This document shows, in pieces, positions 4,185 to 50,394 of a stretch of DNA of 64,000 nt. The notes below the pieces were generated by a model, which saw only the letters and a program-made list of their open reading frames with translations, was not told the origin of the DNA and made no database searches. A program made the position numbers and the translations under genes. Within the stretch, counting starts at the first letter, position 1. Every line of letters begins with the position of its first letter. Source of the stretch: Candidatus Microsaccharimonas sp. (GTDB lineage: Bacteria; Patescibacteriota; Saccharimonadia; Saccharimonadales; Saccharimonadaceae). Location: NCBI GenBank assembly GCA_049276535.1, contig JBASWP010000001.1, positions 168,241 to 232,240 on the forward strand, read 5' to 3'.

Positions 4185-5540
4185 ATGAAGATCCGCTCTA
4201 TTTTTTCTACGTTACTCAATACGCCCAACTATTACGGATTTGTAGAAAACTCAAAAAGAATCACAATCGTAATACTCGCAGCAACATTTTTTGTTTCAAT
4301 AGCCTTGACTGTATTACTCATAGTAAGCGTCGTCCTGTTTCATAATTATCACGTTGCCGGCAGAATAGTCATCGGTCTAGTAACAATTTTTTATTTATCA
4401 ATTGCCGGCTATTTAATTACAGTAGGGCATCATCGGATTTCATCATGGATGTTAATTGTACTTTACTCGATCATCGCTAGTGCAATTCTATTGCTTTGGA
4501 GTATCAACGCTCCTATCGGAATACTATTAATGGCCTTCATCATATTTTTAGCAGGAATAATGCTAGGAGCAAACCGAATAATTCCTGTAACTCTTGGCGT
4601 CGTGATACTTATCTCACTTTTACAATTTTTAGATACTGCCAACATATTCAAACCTGATAGAGAACCTCTTTATACCCCTTCTAATTTCGGTGACGTTGCT
4701 AGCTACGGTGTTATATTAGCCATTTTCGCATTGATAGCATGGTTAGCAGGACGTGAGATGGAAGATGCTATAAAAAACGCAAAAGACGCGCAAACATCGC
4801 TTGCCAAGCAAAAACAAATACTCATCGAGAAACTTGATGAACGTACTCGGTTTTTACGAAAAGTTCAGCTCGATGAAATGAAACAGCTGTACCATTTTGC
4901 CGAGTTAGGTCAACTGACTACTGTCATCCTTCACGATCTGGCAAATTACTTAAGCGTACTGACTCTCGATATTGATGACCTAAAAGAATATAAAAAACGT
5001 GATAGCGCTATTATGCGCGCCGAGGAAAGTATTCAATACATCGACAAGATGATAACGTCCGTCCGAATTCGACTAAGGAATGATGACAGATACGAAATAT
5101 TTAACGCTACAAAAACAATCTTACAATCCACCAAAGAATTCGAAATAAAATGCGCGAGGTTTGGTATAAAACTCACACACTCAGGCAATAGAAACAAGTC
5201 TGTTAAAATTTTCGGAGATTCATTGAGATTATCTCAATGTTTAAATATATTAATTAACAATGCCTTAGATGCATCGATCGAATCAAAGACAGATATCATC
5301 ATAAGCTCTGAAATTTCAAAAAAATATCTCCGCATATCCGTGACGGACTTTGGAACAGGAATAAGTAAGCCTGCTAGAAAAGACCTATTCAGTCCTTTGA
5401 TAAGTGGTAAGAAGAATGGAATGGGAATAGGACTTTATATAACCAAGCAGATCATTGAAACCCACTTCAAAGGGCAGATATCATTAAATCCCGATGACAC
5501 AAAAACCGAGTTTTCAATACTTATCCCGCGAAGCAAGTGA
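4185..5540 (+). CDS. Membrane sensor histidine kinase
   Basis: Multiple N-terminal TM helices. H-box 'LHDLANYLSVL', N-box 'INNALDAS', G1 'TDFGTGIS' and G2 'GMGIGLYI'. Lies immediately downstream of the response regulator. Confidence 0.8.
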   Translation: MKIRSIFSTLLNTPNYYGFVENSKRITIVILAATFFVSIALTVLLIVSVVLFHNYHVAGRIVIGLVTIFYLSIAGYLITVGHHRISSWMLIVLYSIIASAILLLWSINAPIGILLMAFIIFLAGIMLGANRIIPVTLGVVILISLLQFLDTANIFKPDREPLYTPSNFGDVASYGVILAIFALIAWLAGREMEDAIKNAKDAQTSLAKQKQILIEKLDERTRFLRKVQLDEMKQLYHFAELGQLTTVILHDLANYLSVLTLDIDDLKEYKKRDSAIMRAEESIQYIDKMITSVRIRLRNDDRYEIFNATKTILQSTKEFEIKCARFGIKLTHSGNRNKSVKIFGDSLRLSQCLNILINNALDASIESKTDIIISSEISKKYLRISVTDFGTGISKPARKDLFSPLISGKKNGMGIGLYITKQIIETHFKGQISLNPDDTKTEFSILIPRSK

Positions 5541-16500: not shown

Positions 16501-16648
16501 GCATCCCTTCGGGGTAACAAGTAGTGACAGTCCTTCGGGAGTGTGAGCATCCGCCACGGCGTCCGATCACTCGGATGTCCGTGGCGGTATGTGTCCAGGA
16601 ATAGAATAATCCTGCTGATGAGTCGTAAACGACGAAACACATCTTGTA

Positions 16649-43443: not shown

Positions 43444-44154
43444 TTATTTACCGTCGCCGTAATACTCTAACGCGGCTTTGGCGGCCACCTGTTGGGCATG
43501 TTGCTTACTAGGGCCAGTACCTTGACTGACCAAACGATCGCCTGAATAGACGCCCAAGGTAAACATTTTGTCGTGGTCAGGCCCGACTTCTTCCAACACA
43601 ACGTAGCGTGGCGTCACTCCGTCAGTTCGTTGCATAACTTCTTGCAGGTGTGACTTTGGATCACGCCAGCTGCCGCTGACCAAGATAGCGTCAAGCTTTG
43701 AGGTAATGTGCTTTTTGATGAATACTTCCGCGTCGGCGTAGCCTCGCTCCAAGTAAATCGCCCCGATCAGCGCTTCAAAGGCATTTGCCAGAATCTGCTG
43801 ACGGGCTCGATCACCGCCTTGTTTTTCACCACGGCTCATACGGATCAATGATTCATACCCCAGTTTTGTCCCAGCCTCGCCAATACTCTCGGTACGCACC
43901 AGCGATGCGCGCCAACTGGTCAAAATACCTTCTGGTTCGCTGTAGTTATTAAACAAGAAATCGGTCACGACTAGCTCTAAAACAGCATCGCCCAAAAACT
44001 CGAGGCGTTCGTTGTGTTCGTGAACGCTTTTGCGGTGTTCGTTCACGTAGCTACGGTGGGTAAAGGCAGTGATCAGTAGATCGATTTTCTCAAACTCAAA
44101 GCCCAGTATTTCTCGAGCAAATTCTTGGTATGGTGCCACCTGCATCCCCGTCAT
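43444..44154 (-). CDS. rnc: Ribonuclease III
   Basis: 'ERLEFLGDAVLELVV' RNase III signature plus a C-terminal dsRBD. Confidence 0.9.
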   Translation of the reverse strand: MTGMQVAPYQEFAREILGFEFEKIDLLITAFTHRSYVNEHRKSVHEHNERLEFLGDAVLELVVTDFLFNNYSEPEGILTSWRASLVRTESIGEAGTKLGYESLIRMSRGEKQGGDRARQQILANAFEALIGAIYLERGYADAEVFIKKHITSKLDAILVSGSWRDPKSHLQEVMQRTDGVTPRYVVLEEVGPDHDKMFTLGVYSGDRLVSQGTGPSKQHAQQVAAKAALEYYGDGK

Positions 44155-44649
44155 TTATAAATTCTCCTGCCTTATACGTTTCATACCTAGTAGCATCAGT
44201 TTGCCGATATCTTCGTATTCAATGGCGTCGAGGGCATCGTGGAACGAGAACCACTTGATACCATTCATCCATTCTTCTTTTTTGATGGCATTCGTATCAC
44301 CCATGGCTCGGACCAAATATATCTGGGTGGTCATCAGAACTAGTTTGTCGATACGACGATAACGAAAATGAATCTTACCTAACCAGCCGAGGATTTCGAC
44401 GTTAGCTAGCCCTGCTTCTTCACCAATTTCACGCTTAGCGGTTTGCTGCGCGGTTTCACCTTCTTCGATGTGACCTTTTGGAATCGTCCAGCGGTCTTTG
44501 GCGTCTTGGATCAGCAGGATTTCGATAGCACCCTCTTTGCCATGGCGAAATACAATACCTCCCGCGGTTGGTTCGCGGACGATTTCTTGAATAGCTGGTT
44601 TTTTACGAGAAAAATATTTCTTGAATTTATCAAACTGTGGTGCGGCCAT
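44155..44649 (-). CDS. Nudix hydrolase
   Basis: '[22 protein letters not shown]' Nudix box. Confidence 0.65.
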
Positions 44650-45088
44650 CAGTGGCTCCCTCTATAAGTGTGCGGTAGGCTGTTCCCAGCACTCCATTCA
44701 CAAACTTACTCGAGTTATCAGAACCAAACGCTTTTGCGAGTTCGACGGCTTCATTGATTGCTACCTTCGGAGGGACGACATCAGCTTGATGCAGTAGCTC
44801 ATAGATACCAATACGAAGGATATTGCGGTCAATTCGGGCAATCTGTTCAAGTGGCCAATCGGGTGCGATCGGCGTGATCTTTGCGTCAATGTCGCTCTGT
44901 TCTTTTAGAACGCCAGCGACGAGGTTTTCGACGAACTTCGTGTCTTGGATAGCCTCTTCGTACCTCGAAATGTTGCGCTCAAGGACTTCCTTGATCTCAA
45001 CCGAAGTGTCTCCAGACTCGGTACGAAATTCGTACTCGTAGAGTGTCTGGAGGGCGACGATGCGACCGAGATGACGATTAGATGCCAT
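44630..45088 (-). CDS. nusB: Transcription antitermination factor NusB
   Basis: 'LQTLYEYEF' ... 'RIGIYELL' NusB-fold pattern. 152 aa. Confidence 0.75.
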
Positions 45089-45944: not shown

Positions 45945-48848
45945 CTAAAGAACAATACTCACTAATCGGCCAGGGACATAAATCACCTTGGTCGGTTTTT
46001 TATTCTCAACAAATTTAGCGACATTTTCTTGCCCAAGTGCAGCTGTCTTGATCGCTTCAGCGTCAAGATCCTTAGCAACTTCAATTTCACCGCGAAGCTT
46101 ACCATTTACCTGAACGGCAATCGTCATAATATCTTCAACGATCAGTGATTCGTCCCAAGTCGGCCATGTGGCATTTTGGACCAGACCTTCATTGCCTAGT
46201 TGCTGCCATAACTCGTCGGCCATGTGCGGTGCAAACGGCGCAAGTAATTGGGTCAGAGCGGTCAAGGCTTCTTTCCAAACCTCATCGCTGAATCCATCAA
46301 TCTTGAATTTGTAGAGGTCGTTCGTGTATTCCATCAGTCCCGCGATTGCAGTGTTAAAACTAAGCCGACGAATATCGTCAGTGACTTTACGAATCGTTTT
46401 ATGCATAGCGACGCGAACAGCCGCATCATTTTTGGTGACAGTTTTTTTAGCATCAAAGTACTGCTGGCTAAGTGTCCACACTCGTCCTAGGAAGCGGTAG
46501 ATTCCTGCGATCCCCTTCGAACTCCAGGCCGCGTCTAGTTCAATCGGTCCCATGAACAGCATGTAGGTACGTAGTGAGTCAGCGCCATAGCCTTGGTCGA
46601 TAATATCGAGTGGATCAACCACGTTGCCAAGGCTCTTGCTCATCTTGCGACCGTCTTCGGCATTCACGTAGCCATGGTAGATCAATTTCTTAACTGGTTC
46701 TTTAAAGTTAACCAGTTTCATATCGTAAAAGACGTGCGTCCAGAAACGAACGTACAGCAAGTGCGCGACGGCATGATCGCCACCGACGTAGAAATCGAGT
46801 GGATTCCAATAGTTAGCCGTTTCCGGGTCCCATGCCTGTTCGTTGTTGTGCGGGTCGGTATAACGCAGTAAGTACCAGCTACTACAAGCATAGCCGTCCA
46901 TGGTGTCGGTTTCACGCTTGGCAGGCTTGCCACAATCAGGACAGGTAGTATTTACCCAATCTTCCGCACGAGCGAGTGCCGACAGACCGTCGCCCTTTGG
47001 CGCGTAATCTTCGATTTCAGGGAGTACTACTGGCAGTTGGTCCTCGGGGACCGCGACTGCACCGTGTTCTGGACAGTGAATAATAGGGATCGGCGCACCC
47101 CAATAGCGCTGACGGCTGATCAGCCAATCGCGCATTTTGTAGGTGGTTTTCGCTTGGCCGAGTTTCTGTTCTTCTAACCACGCGACAATTTGTTCGCGGG
47201 CTTCGCTACTTGGCAAGCCATCGAACGCTCCCGAGTTAAACAACACGCCTTCACCGTGGAAAATAGGAAGGTTTGCTGACGTGTTGGCTTCATACGCCTC
47301 GAGTACAGCCGGAATACGGTTCAATGTTTCGATCCAGTGGCCGCGGCCTTCTGGTTCAGCATGTAGGTCGGCCATAATTTCGTCTAGACTTGACCAGACG
47401 ACTTTGTAATCTTCGTGTGATTCTTGGTGTTGGTCACCTTGATCGTCGCGGTTAATAATTGCTAGGAATGTATAGCTGAACGAACGACGATTACTGTCTT
47501 TGTTGCTGTTGTAGTAATACGAATACGTCGGGCCGCCCAGCGGAATGATCGCTTCGGCCGTTGCAAAGCCGGCTTCTTCTTCCAATTCACGGCGTGCTGC
47601 TGATTCGTAGGTCTCGCCTTCATCTATTCCACCGCCTACCAGCCAACGCTTGTTGGCTTTTTGGTTAATCAGACTCATAAATTCTTTGGTTCGTGGGTCA
47701 TAACCAATGACAACAGGGCCAGTAACATCAACGGCATCTTGTAATGGTTCACCAAAATCAGGCGCAACAACTGCCACAATCGGTAGATTATATTTCGTCG
47801 CAAAGGCATTGTCGCGCTCGTCGTGTGCAGGCACTGCCATGATCGCGCCAGTTCCATAGCCGCCAAGTACATAGTCAGCCACCCAGACCGGTACCTTCTC
47901 ACCGTTCGCTGGATTAATTGCGTAACTGCCCGTAAATACGCCTGTTTTTTCTTTCGTATCATTGGTTCGTTCGATCTCGGATTTCTTGACGGCATCCTTA
48001 ACGTATTGCTTTAACGAGTCAGTAAATTCACCCGTTCCTAATTCCAGCGCCAAAGGATGTTCTGGTGCCAATACGAGGAAGGTTGCCCCGAAAATAGTAT
48101 CGGGTCGGGTCGTAAAGACCGTAATAGTCTCATTGCGGCCATCGAGGGCAAATTGTACTTCGGCGCCCTGTGATTTTCCGATCCAGTTCGTCTGCGCTGT
48201 CTTAATTTTCTGTGGCCAATCCAGATCTTCGATTTCATCCAGCAATGCATCGGCGTATTCTGTGATCTTGAAAAACCACTGCTTCATCGATTTCTTTTCA
48301 ACTAAACTACCACAGCGCCAACAATGGCCACCTTCGACTTGTTCGTTAGCAAGGACCGTCTTATCTACCGGACACCACCACTGCAATGATTCTTTTTGAT
48401 ACGCTAAGCCACGTTCGAATAATTTCGTAAATACCCACTGGGTCCAGCGATAGTATTCAGGGTCACTGGTATTAATCTCGCGTGACCAATCGATACTGAC
48501 ACCCATGCGCTTGAATTGATTCTTAAAGTTCGCGATGTTTTCCAGCGTTACTTCGGCTGGTGCGCGACCGGTTTTAATAGCAAAGTTTTCAGCCGGCAAC
48601 CCAAACGTATCCCACCCCATCGGGTTCAGTACATTATGGCCGTGTTGTTTTTGAAAGCGTGCAATCGCATCAACAATCGCCCAGCTAAAGGCATGTCCGG
48701 TGTGCATCCCGGCGCCGCTTGGGTACGGGAACATGCCCGAGACGTAGGTTTTCACCTTACTCGGGTCGATCACTACTTCGTTGGCTTTTTGATCTTCCCA
48801 GACCTTCTGCCACTTCGGTTCGATTTCAGACGGGTTGTAGCGTTGCAT
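45945..48848 (-). CDS. leuS: Leucyl-tRNA synthetase carrying an inserted Nudix domain
   Basis: 'PYPSGAGMHTGHAF' HIGH-type motif, 'KMSKS', a CP1 editing domain and 'RDWLISRQRYWGAPIP'. Plus 'GGGIDEGETYESAARRELEEEAGF', a perfect Nudix box, inserted after the editing domain at about aa 375-505. Confidence 0.9.
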   Translation of the reverse strand: MQRYNPSEIEPKWQKVWEDQKANEVVIDPSKVKTYVSGMFPYPSGAGMHTGHAFSWAIVDAIARFQKQHGHNVLNPMGWDTFGLPAENFAIKTGRAPAEVTLENIANFKNQFKRMGVSIDWSREINTSDPEYYRWTQWVFTKLFERGLAYQKESLQWWCPVDKTVLANEQVEGGHCWRCGSLVEKKSMKQWFFKITEYADALLDEIEDLDWPQKIKTAQTNWIGKSQGAEVQFALDGRNETITVFTTRPDTIFGATFLVLAPEHPLALELGTGEFTDSLKQYVKDAVKKSEIERTNDTKEKTGVFTGSYAINPANGEKVPVWVADYVLGGYGTGAIMAVPAHDERDNAFATKYNLPIVAVVAPDFGEPLQDAVDVTGPVVIGYDPRTKEFMSLINQKANKRWLVGGGIDEGETYESAARRELEEEAGFATAEAIIPLGGPTYSYYYNSNKDSNRRSFSYTFLAIINRDDQGDQHQESHEDYKVVWSSLDEIMADLHAEPEGRGHWIETLNRIPAVLEAYEANTSANLPIFHGEGVLFNSGAFDGLPSSEAREQIVAWLEEQKLGQAKTTYKMRDWLISRQRYWGAPIPIIHCPEHGAVAVPEDQLPVVLPEIEDYAPKGDGLSALARAEDWVNTTCPDCGKPAKRETDTMDGYACSSWYLLRYTDPHNNEQAWDPETANYWNPLDFYVGGDHAVAHLLYVRFWTHVFYDMKLVNFKEPVKKLIYHGYVNAEDGRKMSKSLGNVVDPLDIIDQGYGADSLRTYMLFMGPIELDAAWSSKGIAGIYRFLGRVWTLSQQYFDAKKTVTKNDAAVRVAMHKTIRKVTDDIRRLSFNTAIAGLMEYTNDLYKFKIDGFSDEVWKEALTALTQLLAPFAPHMADELWQQLGNEGLVQNATWPTWDESLIVEDIMTIAVQVNGKLRGEIEVAKDLDAEAIKTAALGQENVAKFVENKKPTKVIYVPGRLVSIVL

Positions 48849-48882: not shown

Positions 48883-50394
48883 TTAAGGCATAGTGACGGC
48901 GGTAGGCACATACGAGTCAATCGTCGTACCGTTGCCGAGTTTACCATTGGCGTTGTATCCCCAGCAATACGCTTCGTCGGCGGCGATGACGCAACTGAAA
49001 TTACTCCCGGCAGAAATGGCAGTCACCGTCTTTCCAGCCAGAACACCGCTAGTTGAAACGGCTACTGGTACATATGAATTCGCAGTACTGTTATTACCGA
49101 GCTTTCCTATAGCCCCACTGCCCCAGCAGAACGCTTCTCCGTCCGCAATAGCACAGGTGTGGGCGTTTCCAGCGGAAATGGCAGTCACCGTCTTTCCAGC
49201 CAAAACACCGCTGGTTGAAACGGCTACTGGAGCAGCTGCGTTCGTCGTAGTGTTATCACCAACTTGGCCAGTGCTGTTATAGCCCCAGCAGTAGGCGGCA
49301 CCGTCGGCGATGGCGCACGTATGCCCATAGCTCGATGAAATGGCGGTCACTGTTTTTCCTGCAAGTACGCCGCTAGTAGAAACCGCGACAGGAACGGATG
49401 AGGACGTAAGTAAATTATCGCCGAGCCTTCCTAGGCTTCCGGCTCCCCAGCAGTAGGCGGCACCGTCGGCGATGGCGCAGGAATGATGCTCGCCAGCCGC
49501 TAAGGCGGTCACTGTTTTTCCTGCAAGTACGCCGCTAGTAGAAACAGGTGTCGGCACTAACGAGTTAGTCGTTCCACCATTTCCAAAACGCGAGTTCGCG
49601 TTATCTCCCCAACAGTAGGCGGCACCATCGGCAACGGCACAGCTGTGGTAGACATTGACGGTAATCTGCGTTACTGTTTTTCCTGCAAGTACGCCGCTAG
49701 TAGAAACGGCTACTGGGACGTTCGAGTTCGCAGTGCTGTTGTTTCCTAGTTTGCCAGCTAGGGTCGCATTCCCCCAACAGTACGCTTCTCCGTCCGCAAT
49801 AGCACAGGTATGATAGCCTCCCGAGCCATTAGATGCGACTGCCGTGATTGTCTTGCCCGAGAGAACGCCCGTCGTTAGAACCGGAACTGCCACTATCGAG
49901 CTTCCAGAACCGCCATCACCAAGCTGCCCGTACGTACTATCTCCCCAGCAGTACAGCTGTGAGGAAATAAGGCTACACCCCGTATTGGTTGCCGTTTGAA
50001 TCTGAGACGCAACGACCGACACGGTTGGGCATGCGCCTGCCTGCACCGTCTTAGTCTCTGAATCTATATGATATACAGGCACGCCGTTCTGACTGCTCGT
50101 CGCCGTTAAACAGTAGGAGTTAGTGCCTGCGTCGTAGCTATAGGAAAATGTAGTCGTGGAACTTTTCTTAACATCATCAGCCGAACTCGGGTACCTGTCG
50201 GAGTTGGTGGTCTTCGCATTTTCAAGTTGGGTGGCGGCGCTTTGTAAGTCGGACTGTATCACAGCGTCGCCCGCACGTTGTTGAATACCTCCATACCCAA
50301 CCACCGCTAACGTAGCTAGAATTCCGATGACGACAATCACGATGAGCAACTCAACAATCGTAAAGCCTCGAAAGGTTGTATGGGTATGTTTCAT
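48883..50394 (-). CDS. Type-IV-pilin-like (N-terminal methylation motif) protein with RCC1-repeat beta-propeller domain
   Basis: 'FRGFTIVELLIVIVVIGILA' prepilin class-III signal. Followed by about seven repeats of '...HTCAIADGAAYCWGxNxxGxLG...SxxxVPVAVSTSGVLAGKTVTAI...' (RCC1/BLIP-II-like). Confidence 0.65.
   Translation of the reverse strand: MKHTHTTFRGFTIVELLIVIVVIGILATLAVVGYGGIQQRAGDAVIQSDLQSAATQLENAKTTNSDRYPSSADDVKKSSTTTFSYSYDAGTNSYCLTATSSQNGVPVYHIDSETKTVQAGACPTVSVVASQIQTATNTGCSLISSQLYCWGDSTYGQLGDGGSGSSIVAVPVLTTGVLSGKTITAVASNGSGGYHTCAIADGEAYCWGNATLAGKLGNNSTANSNVPVAVSTSGVLAGKTVTQITVNVYHSCAVADGAAYCWGDNANSRFGNGGTTNSLVPTPVSTSGVLAGKTVTALAAGEHHSCAIADGAAYCWGAGSLGRLGDNLLTSSSVPVAVSTSGVLAGKTVTAISSSYGHTCAIADGAAYCWGYNSTGQVGDNTTTNAAAPVAVSTSGVLAGKTVTAISAGNAHTCAIADGEAFCWGSGAIGKLGNNSTANSYVPVAVSTSGVLAGKTVTAISAGSNFSCVIAADEAYCWGYNANGKLGNGTTIDSYVPTAVTMP
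48950..50000 (-). repeat. About 150-nt tandem coding repeats (RCC1-like blades) inside the pilin-like gene
   Basis: Near-identical nucleotide blocks recur in tandem, for example 'gtcaccgtctttccagcca(g/a)aacaccgct(a/g)gttgaaacggctactgg'. The protein shows matching repeats. Confidence 0.6.

Follow-up and report, generated by a model that had tools for sequence, protein, structure and literature searches.

A predicted Nudix hydrolase cassette nested in the CP1 editing domain of leucyl-tRNA synthetase from Candidatus Microsaccharimonas

Introduction

Few translation enzymes have been studied as closely as leucyl-tRNA synthetase (LeuRS) and its CP1 editing domain, which are also targets of antibiotics. 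This report concerns a leuS gene of Candidatus Microsaccharimonas sp. (Saccharibacteria, TM7; Patescibacteriota) whose product carries a Nudix domain inside CP1. The gene lies in a stretch of 64,000 nucleotides (assembly GCA_049276535.1, contig JBASWP010000001.1, positions 168,241 to 232,240), which is referred to below as the window and supplies all coordinates.

The closest described systems are the LeuRS of Thermus thermophilus (1H3N, 2BYT) and Escherichia coli (4AQ7, 4ARC). The window protein shares with them a collinear core, ZN1, CP1, anticodon-binding and C-terminal regions, together with the HIGH, KMSKS and T-rich motifs and the editing aspartate. Compared with the T. thermophilus (Tt) enzyme, it has a Nudix domain of 157 amino acids (aa) in place of a 4-residue CP1 loop, and the leucine-specific domain is missing.

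Free-standing Nudix enzymes provide the second point of comparison. According to the fold model and Foldseek, they share with the insert an alpha/beta/alpha fold, and they also have in common with it the strict Nudix box and, past it, an X-loop. The nearest solved structure, 2AZW, is a MutT/nudix family protein of Enterococcus faecalis with no assigned function, while the characterised neighbours include hydrolases of diadenosine tetra- and hexaphosphate (Ap4A/Ap6A; 1F3Y/1JKN, 1VC8, 1KT9), RppH, ADP-ribose and ADP-sugar pyrophosphatases, and MutT1. However, the insert is just 14-26% identical to solved Nudix enzymes, has a signature of its own (K-x2-N-R, ESHE...W, an FG strand and C-terminal helices) and is nested in a host protein.

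Combinations of a class Ia synthetase with an unrelated catalytic domain have a precedent in the family NF040702, 'isoleucine--tRNA ligase, N-acetyltransferase domain-containing'. There, the added domain is a GNAT rather than a Nudix domain and the host is a different synthetase; the window protein reaches 58.8 bits on this model, whose cut-off is 1999. In a survey published in 2026, domain insertions were catalogued and CP1 (PF13603) was listed as exclusively inserted, with zero cases as a host among 213 events (PMC13114784), whereas in the window CP1 is itself the host of a further domain.

A Nudix domain within CP1

The window protein is 100% identical to P0153, a protein from a metagenome-assembled genome of Candidatus Microsaccharimonas sp. 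that NCBI names 'class I tRNA ligase family protein [Candidatus Microsaccharimonas sp.]'; the nested architecture explains why some such proteins receive merely this name. It passes the TIGR00396 leuS_bact equivalog (1018.7 bits, cut-off 548.4) and matches T. thermophilus LeuRS (1H3N) at E 1e-247 in a phmmer search. Pfam recognises tRNA-synt_1/1g, the LeuRS editing domain PF13603, NUDIX (PF00293) and Anticodon_1. The N-terminus, MQRYNPSEIEPKWQ, is collinear with that of T. thermophilus LeuRS in the alignment to 1H3N.

The same alignment, made with phmmer, delimits the insert. Residues 1-373 correspond to Tt 1-373, residues 531-730 to Tt 378-579 and residues 735-966 to Tt 637-875, so that aa 374-530, 157 aa or about 153 net extra, take the place of the 4-residue loop between Tt 373 and 378. 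The PF13603 match covers aa 221-367 (221 bits) and breaks at profile position 146 of 185, having begun at position 2. Since the GVLFNSG...RDW segment that follows the insert is the final element of CP1, the Nudix domain is placed inside CP1 and not after it, as the original prediction had it. By alignment, the nesting is thus two levels deep, with the Nudix domain inside CP1 and CP1 itself inserted in the Rossmann fold. The earlier estimate of about 130 extra residues falls short, and its span of 47336-47726 (aa 375-504) takes in the Nudix core and leaves out the C-terminal helical part. At 967 aa the protein is indeed oversized, as had been stated, relative to close relatives without the insert (799-819 aa). 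The excess is partly hidden, though, because the leucine-specific domain is also gone.

Several lines of evidence identify the insert as an intact Nudix domain embedded in an otherwise complete LeuRS, as originally proposed. In the whole protein, PF00293 matches aa 388-499 with 55 bits (cut-off 21.1, E 1e-14), and the predicted slice of about 130 aa on its own reaches 59 bits. The perfect Nudix box reported earlier, GGGIDEGETYESAARRELEEEAGF at aa 405-428, is confirmed, with the detail that the strict box spans aa 406-428 and the 24-residue string carries one surplus leading G. Across a set of 37 sequences, composed of diverse LeuRS inserts and free-standing Nudix relatives, G406, G407, E412, E421, E424, E425, G427 and K450 are invariant. 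R420 is conserved in at least 90% of them, W485 in 97%, N453 and R454 in about 88% and E476 in 80%. The X-loop positions occupied by Y444, Y445 and Y446 in the window are tyrosine in about 40-57% family-wide and phenylalanine in many others. The strict box is present in 107/107 Nudix-bearing close relatives, as well as in about 55 of some 60 LeuRS-associated clusters (at most 50% identity).

Structure prediction, which had been proposed as a check, also gives an intact Nudix fold. AlphaFold2 modelled the whole protein on a 23-sequence alignment with a mean predicted local distance difference test (pLDDT) score of 89.7 and a predicted TM-score (pTM) of 0.76, with block means of 81-94 within the insert. 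The insert alone, with 37 diverse homologues, reached a pLDDT of 94.5 and a pTM of 0.89. In this model, the first and last strands pair and the termini are adjacent, as expected of a domain able to sit in a loop; the Nudix helix comprises aa 414-426. A Foldseek search recovered 557 solved Nudix structures at E<1e-3.

Selection on the insert was estimated by the Nei-Gojobori method against the gene of a 93%-identical relative (L026). The ratio of nonsynonymous to synonymous substitution rates (dN/dS) was 0.023 in the insert, 0.026 in CP1 and 0.012 in the remainder, values that are approximate as dS was high (about 1.2-2.5 in this comparison, with 1.43 between the window and its nearest relative). 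Judged by these ratios, purifying selection acts on the insert as strongly as on its host.

The host itself retains all of its signatures. HIGH, KMSKS, TTRPDT, GTG and AHDERD are intact in the window and unchanged in both Nudix-bearing and Nudix-less relatives, as seen in A1, an alignment of 23 such LeuRS. In the KMSKS loop, S737 and K738 are invariant in A1, and K735 and M736 are conserved in at least 90%. Within CP1, the invariant residues are T247, R248, D250, T251, G332, T333, G334, H342, D343, R345 and D346, the last of these being the editing aspartate in AHDERD (equivalent to E. coli D345); AHDERDNAFATKYNLPIVAV stands at aa 341-360. In the last part of CP1, GVLFNSG occupies aa 534-540 and RDWLISRQRYWGAPIP aa 573-588, with G534, N538, S539 and G544 conserved in alignments of relatives. 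The leucine-specific domain, which precedes KMSKS in E. coli and T. thermophilus (Tt 580-636), is without a counterpart, as aa 730 is followed by the next aligned residue at aa 735 (46632..46660, minus strand). This domain is missing in some bona fide LeuRS and is not strictly defining. From its motifs, the host is a complete LeuRS with synthetic and editing sites intact, and editing function is predicted.

Table 1. Features of leuS and its nested Nudix domain in the window
Feature	Residues (aa)	Coordinates	Strand	Basis
leuS, complete bacterial-type leucyl-tRNA synthetase, 967 aa + stop		45945..48848	-	Open reading frame, uninterrupted frame
HIGH signature of class I synthetic site (HTGH)	49-52	48693..48704	-	H49, G51, H52 invariant in alignment A1
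CP1 editing domain, first part	221-373	47730..48188	-	PF13603
T-rich motif of CP1 (TTRPDT)	246-251	48096-48113	-	Position in translation
GTG...AHDERD of CP1	332-346	ends at 47811	-	Position in translation
Nested Nudix domain, 'type A' cassette: beta-rich Nudix fold and two or three C-terminal helices	374-530	47259..47729	-	1H3N alignment, Pfam, fold model
Nudix box GGIDEGETYESAARRELEEEAGF, predicted catalytic loop-helix-loop	406-428	47565..47633	-	Strict pattern G-x5-E-x7-RE-U-x-EE-x-G-U
X-loop region past the box (YSYYYNSNKDSNR): aromatic cluster, signature K450-x2-N453-R454	442-454	47487..47525	-	Alignment
E476 and W485, downstream of the X-loop	476, 485	47394-47423	-	Alignment
CP1 editing domain, last part (HGEGVLFNSG...KMRDW), back to catalytic core	531-575	47124..47258	-	Aligns with Tt LeuRS 378-417 onward
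KMSKS loop	735-739	46632..46646	-	Motif position
Anticodon-binding domain	814-932	46053..46409	-	PF08264, 87.8 bits

Cassette exchange at the CP1 site

Comparison of close relatives indicates that the site is polymorphic. In a neighbour-joining tree built from the flanks only, the 19 LeuRS that lack the domain fall in scattered positions, as sisters of Nudix-bearing sequences, and every outgroup bears the domain. Sister pairs with 90-97% flank identity differ by the entire Nudix domain. Empty sites mostly read EKPxExxE.IYHGEG, and the loop of a natural empty allele is EKPAEYEEAIYHGEG.

Where the site is filled, its content also varies. The one position is occupied by at least four types of cassette (A, which the window has, B1, B2 and C) with 25-33% mutual identity, while the flanks of LeuRS with alternative cassettes or an empty loop are 80-97% identical. 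For example, P0164 is 88.8% identical to the window protein in the flanks and 31% in the insert, and for P0258 the corresponding values are 71% and 58%. The types other than that of the window have nearer kin (38-47% identity) among free-standing Nudix proteins or the inserts of distant LeuRS than in the window insert.

In sister pairs that differ in insert state, identity falls to 62-69% at aa 534-575, against 93-99% elsewhere. Along the pair P0271/P0199, successive values are 97, 99, 97, 95, 93, then 67, then 97, 99, 95 and 91. This local dip points to the replacement of an allelic segment and not to divergence in place, an option that the low dN/dS excludes as well. On these comparisons, the domain is a modular cassette that is exchanged at one polymorphic site marked by a local recombination tract.

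Distribution and relatives outside LeuRS

An exhaustive phmmer search of 1.84 billion representative proteins with the insert returned 206 proteins at E<1e-3. The best 150 of these, as 50%-identity clusters, were classified using pieces of the window LeuRS. About 60 are complete or fragmentary LeuRS in which the two parts of CP1 enclose the Nudix domain, and in some LeuRS among the same 150 it is found at a second site, which follows the N-terminal core and precedes CP1. Two or even three Nudix domains are present in several LeuRS (P0009, P0018, P0026, P0025, P0027, P0036, P0007). Among the 120 best full-length matches (at least 68% identity), about 93 contain PF00293 and 25 are without it. 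Public assemblies hold more than 100 homologous proteins from independent assemblies, and labelled carriers belong to Microsaccharimonas, 'Candidatus Saccharibacteria' and 'Patescibacteria group bacterium'. An apparent rarity of the insert (2 matches in a word-index search with a 172-aa insert) was overturned by the exhaustive and full-length searches, which gave hundreds of relatives.

The survey of Patescibacteria and related Candidate Phyla Radiation (CPR) LeuRS suggested by the original prediction therefore finds the insertion to be widespread and conserved. No description of the fusion was found in literature searches combining LeuRS or aminoacyl-tRNA synthetase with Nudix, Saccharibacteria with Nudix, or CPR synthetase with domain insertion, in line with the earlier remark that no characterisation of it was known. 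The architecture is common and conserved in Patescibacteria and abundant in sequence databases, where its labels are assigned automatically, with no published characterisation found. Other domains occur in LeuRS of this group as well: NTP_transf_5 lies inside a 1251-aa Patescibacteria LeuRS and a DUF559 endonuclease-like domain in a LeuRS fragment (among P0037, P0039, P0023 and P0053).

The Nudix subfamily also occurs with CP1 alone. P0001 is a complete 291-aa stand-alone CP1+Nudix gene with its own ATG and a TAG stop (on L001), and P0004, P0005 and P0016 resemble it; in P0053, a CP1-like+Nudix protein has an added N-terminal Ser_hydrolase domain. These stand-alone proteins, all encoded at related loci outside the window, begin and finish at CP1 boundaries, and the central CP1 segment is gone. 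TTRPDT is replaced by TGRPDW, VKRPEW, TKRPEW or TDHPEM, the GTG loop is gone and the editing aspartate is lost in 3/5, while the Nudix signature residues are all kept. P0001, P0004, P0005 and P0016 are autonomous copies of an editing domain, as are the trans-editing factors AlaX, YbaK/ProX and ThrRS-ed. Unlike these factors, however, the stand-alone proteins are unlikely to deacylate tRNA because the central segment, the T-rich motif and, in 3/5, the aspartate are lost.

In a locus with the same leuS-NusB-Nudix-RNase III synteny as the window, P0004 is encoded 88 bp upstream of a leuS whose 967-aa product bears the Nudix domain, and because of this position it is taken as a tandem partial duplicate. 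P0004 is 400 aa long (L024, 5001-6203; L025, 4287-5489). In L024, it is preceded by a gene for a 197-aa tRNA_SAD-like (AlaX-type) protein (4398-4991), and together the three genes look like a small cluster derived from editing domains.

Elsewhere, free-standing Nudix proteins of 161-177 aa align end to end with the insert; one of them, P0011, is found in the same NDK/rotamase/XerD neighbourhood as P0001. About 15 clusters of PNPase/RNase PH-like 3' exoribonucleases with lengths of 425-624 aa (L028, 5001-6596; P0041, P0042, P0110, P0123, P0273, P0276-P0288) also contain the subfamily, nested between their RNase_PH and RNase_PH_C domains; some of these proteins are labelled 'MutT' by JGI. Their Nudix domains are marked by the N-terminal FG strand, the X-loop lysine, ESHE...W and C-terminal 'RGV.K..G.D..SD' helices, a subfamily signature that extends over the whole domain and is shared with LeuRS inserts such as that of L003/P0031. 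Their nearest Nudix-less kin are Patescibacteria PNPases, and P0042 is a complete gene on a 196-kb contig. Finally, a single GNAT-Nudix-GNAT-Peptidase_M17 protein also bears the subfamily.

Predicted function and competing explanations

The reading favoured here, to which a probability of roughly 0.55 is given, is that the intact nested cassette would be an active hydrolase that is valued for its tether to a scaffold binding an RNA 3' end or a nucleotide. Catalytic activity as such is highly probable. Residue conservation and the dN/dS of 0.023 suggest an autonomous Mg2+-dependent pyrophosphohydrolase, in which E421, E424 and E425 of the Nudix helix would perform catalysis. The basic and aromatic X-loop (Y444-446, K450, N453, R454), together with W485 and E476, would form the site that holds the substrate. 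The tethered domain would hydrolyse a polyphosphate-containing nucleotide (NpnN or NDP/NTP-X) or a pyrophosphate-bearing RNA end, while LeuRS aminoacylation and editing would go on unchanged. The weakest step is the last one, that selective value derives from the tether to such scaffolds (CP1, the RNase PH fold), and functional coupling of the domain to its host, as opposed to mere carriage, is put at even odds.

Aminoacyl-AMP has no pyrophosphate linkage. Action on mischarged adenylates, one of the roles first suggested for the domain, is chemically unlikely for this reason, and hydrolysis of aminoacyl-adenylates is not part of the proposed mechanism. Nudix enzymes cleave pyrophosphate linkages (PMC10148737), and the X-loop is a determinant of their specificity (PMC5389931). 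The conserved K450 and R454 would suit a polyphosphate chain. Among substrate classes, nucleotide-pool compounds of the NDP/NTP type are a tentative first choice, dinucleoside polyphosphates (ApnA) appear unlikely and RNA-end-linked substrates somewhat more so. An improbable variant of the last class is that cassettes tethered to scaffolds gripping 3' ends would remove pyrophosphate or nucleotide-diphosphate adducts from the tRNA 3'-CCA, such as those made by toxSAS enzymes, which pyrophosphorylate tRNA CCA ends (bioRxiv 10.1101/2021.04.30.441581; PMC11245113). Under this variant, toxin conflict would drive cassette turnover, copy-number expansion and presence/absence polymorphism in an essential gene. 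It would also account for the choice of hosts, namely LeuRS CP1, degenerate stand-alone CP1 and PNPase/RNase PH-like enzymes.

In the NCBIfam scan, the insert reached membership of no curated Nudix family: the best match, to RppH/NudH (NF001938 and related), gave 26.9 bits against 116 and covered the Nudix-box region only, the MutT 8-oxo-dGTPase model TIGR00586 gave 20.3 bits against 97.9, the ADP-ribose diphosphatase model NF008003 gave 19.3 bits against 248, and NudE membership was rejected too. The PADLOC defence models yielded a sole match at the level of the Nudix box (PDC-S07, 16.7 bits, E 0.001) and no link to defence, and the PHROGs scan returned generic phage Nudix families only.

Two explanations compete most directly with tethering. 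The more serious, though still doubtful, is that the domain is an uncoupled passenger, a generic house-cleaning hydrolase that sits in tolerant loops and is carried by an essential, constitutive gene of a streamlined genome, so that its proximity to CP1 would be meaningless. The repeated loss of the domain in close relatives with unaltered LeuRS motifs implies that LeuRS does not need it and fits a dispensable passenger equally well, and adjacent termini formed by paired strands would ease insertion. The subfamily also exists free-standing, in one case beside NDK, a hint of nucleotide-pool metabolism, and in the unrelated GNAT/M17 protein, so hosts that bind RNA 3' ends are not exclusive; moreover, Patescibacteria LeuRS take other inserts (NTP_transf_5, DUF559). 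Repeated loss, the free-standing forms and the GNAT/M17 host weigh against the favoured reading, as do the absence of a curated family, the distance from RppH/NudH, the approximate nature of the dN/dS values and the fact that coupling is argued from recurrent architecture alone. Repeated loss and free-standing forms may mean that tethering does not matter. What the passenger account leaves unexplained is the strong host skew: about 60 of the best 150 relatives are LeuRS, in which the domain, present up to three times and at two or more sites, invariably lies around CP1. In addition, the stand-alone paralogues retain the CP1 scaffold despite degenerate editing residues, and at least four cassettes turn over at one site with the box always kept, which suggests selection for a Nudix domain exactly there. 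This skew towards RNA-3'-end-binding scaffolds and the degenerate CP1 kept in stand-alone copies suggest that tethering does matter. The other competitor, which is unlikely, is that the domain is an Ap4A/ApnA hydrolase destroying the dinucleoside polyphosphates that arise as side products at the synthetic site of LeuRS. LeuRS is a weak producer of Ap4A compared with LysRS and PheRS, and would hence be an odd preferred host for such an enzyme. Nevertheless, Ap4A is made by aminoacyl-tRNA synthetases and degraded by Nudix hydrolases (PMC10148737), and the Tyr/Phe positions Y444-Y446 lie about 16-18 residues past the box, where a tyrosine in the X-loop correlates with ApnA hydrolases, a correlate and not a proof (Dunn et al. 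1999, per PMC5389931). The basic K450 and R454 fit this substrate too, and the neighbours by structure and by profile include Ap4A/Ap6A hydrolases. These neighbours are non-specific, however: ADP-sugar, RppH, MutT1 and DIPP enzymes rank level with Ap4A/Ap6A hydrolases, and the top match, 2AZW, is uncharacterised, which limits the favoured reading as well. RppH/NudH-type models score far under their cut-offs and the aromatic positions are only about 40-57% tyrosine, while an Ap4A role would not predict that the module is retained in PNPase/RNase PH-like enzymes and in stand-alone CP1+Nudix proteins, which lack a synthetic site.

Two further explanations deny the domain an enzymatic role or a biological one. 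A non-catalytic Nudix-fold module, structural, regulatory or ligand-sensing, could for instance bind a nucleotide and tune editing or aminoacylation. Non-catalytic Nudix domains typically lose catalytic box residues, whereas here these residues are all invariant over inserts with only 25-30% mutual identity, and the dN/dS of 0.023 speaks in the same direction. Non-enzymatic Nudix-fold proteins do exist (PMC5389931) and the regulators NrtR and AraR are among the structural neighbours, but such a role is very improbable for this insert. An artefact or selfish element, be it an assembly chimera, a frameshift, an intein or a recent mobile-element insertion, can be all but dismissed. Only a marginally atypical codon usage (the distance is 1.657, and the 95th percentile among blocks of equal size from this gene is 1.578) and the presence/absence polymorphism at the site hint at one. 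Against it, the frame is continuous, NCBI has an identical protein, and independent assemblies contribute more than 100 homologous clusters. GC content is 0.486 in the insert and 0.49-0.50 elsewhere in the gene, no direct or inverted repeats of note were found at the insert junctions, and the Pfam scan of LeuRS contained no Hint/intein or endonuclease family. Intein splice residues (an N-terminal Cys/Ser, and a C-terminal His-Asn followed by Cys/Ser/Thr) are missing at the junctions VVAPDFG... and ...IFHGEGV. With the confident fold in the whole-protein context and strong purifying selection, intein, mobile element, chimera and frameshift were ruled out by the frame, Pfam, junction and composition checks. 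The outcomes under which the original prediction was to be abandoned (an insert without a Nudix fold, a frameshift or a chimera) were looked for, and none applied.

Genomic neighbourhood

A stand-alone Nudix hydrolase of 164 aa (PF00293, 66.6 bits) is encoded near leuS at 44155..44649 on the minus strand, flanked by nusB (44630-45088) and the gene for RNase III (43444-44154). The related loci L024 and L025 keep this leuS-nusB-Nudix-RNase III order. Origin of the insert as a duplicate of this neighbouring gene was ruled out, as the two share 43% identity over just 53 residues around the box.

Directly upstream of leuS lies an open reading frame of 503 aa (48883..50394, minus strand) with a type IV pilin-like N-terminus, FTIVELLIVIVVIGILA. 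It contains many tandem repeats of about 50 aa, 'GxxYCWG...G.LG...T..S.VPV.V...GVL.GKTVT', which are RCC1-like in look. In L024 and L025, its place is taken by the CP1+Nudix paralogue. Elsewhere in the window, a match to the type III hammerhead ribozyme (RF00008) spans the full model at 16588..16643 on the plus strand, with 50.2 bits (E 4e-8), just above the gathering threshold of 48.5.

Implications

A second, unrelated catalytic domain nested in CP1 is an arrangement of which no description was found in the searchable literature. It contradicts the generalisation that CP1 is always inserted and never a host (PMC13114784). Even if the domain were a passenger, the locus would provide a clear natural case of cassette-like domain exchange within an essential gene.

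If the domain is coupled to its host, it would connect tRNA charging in minimal genomes with nucleotide or polyphosphate metabolism, or with the chemistry of RNA ends, which would be a new link. Should the improbable toxSAS variant prove true, the cassettes would endow an aminoacyl-tRNA synthetase with tRNA-end repair or immunity of a new class.

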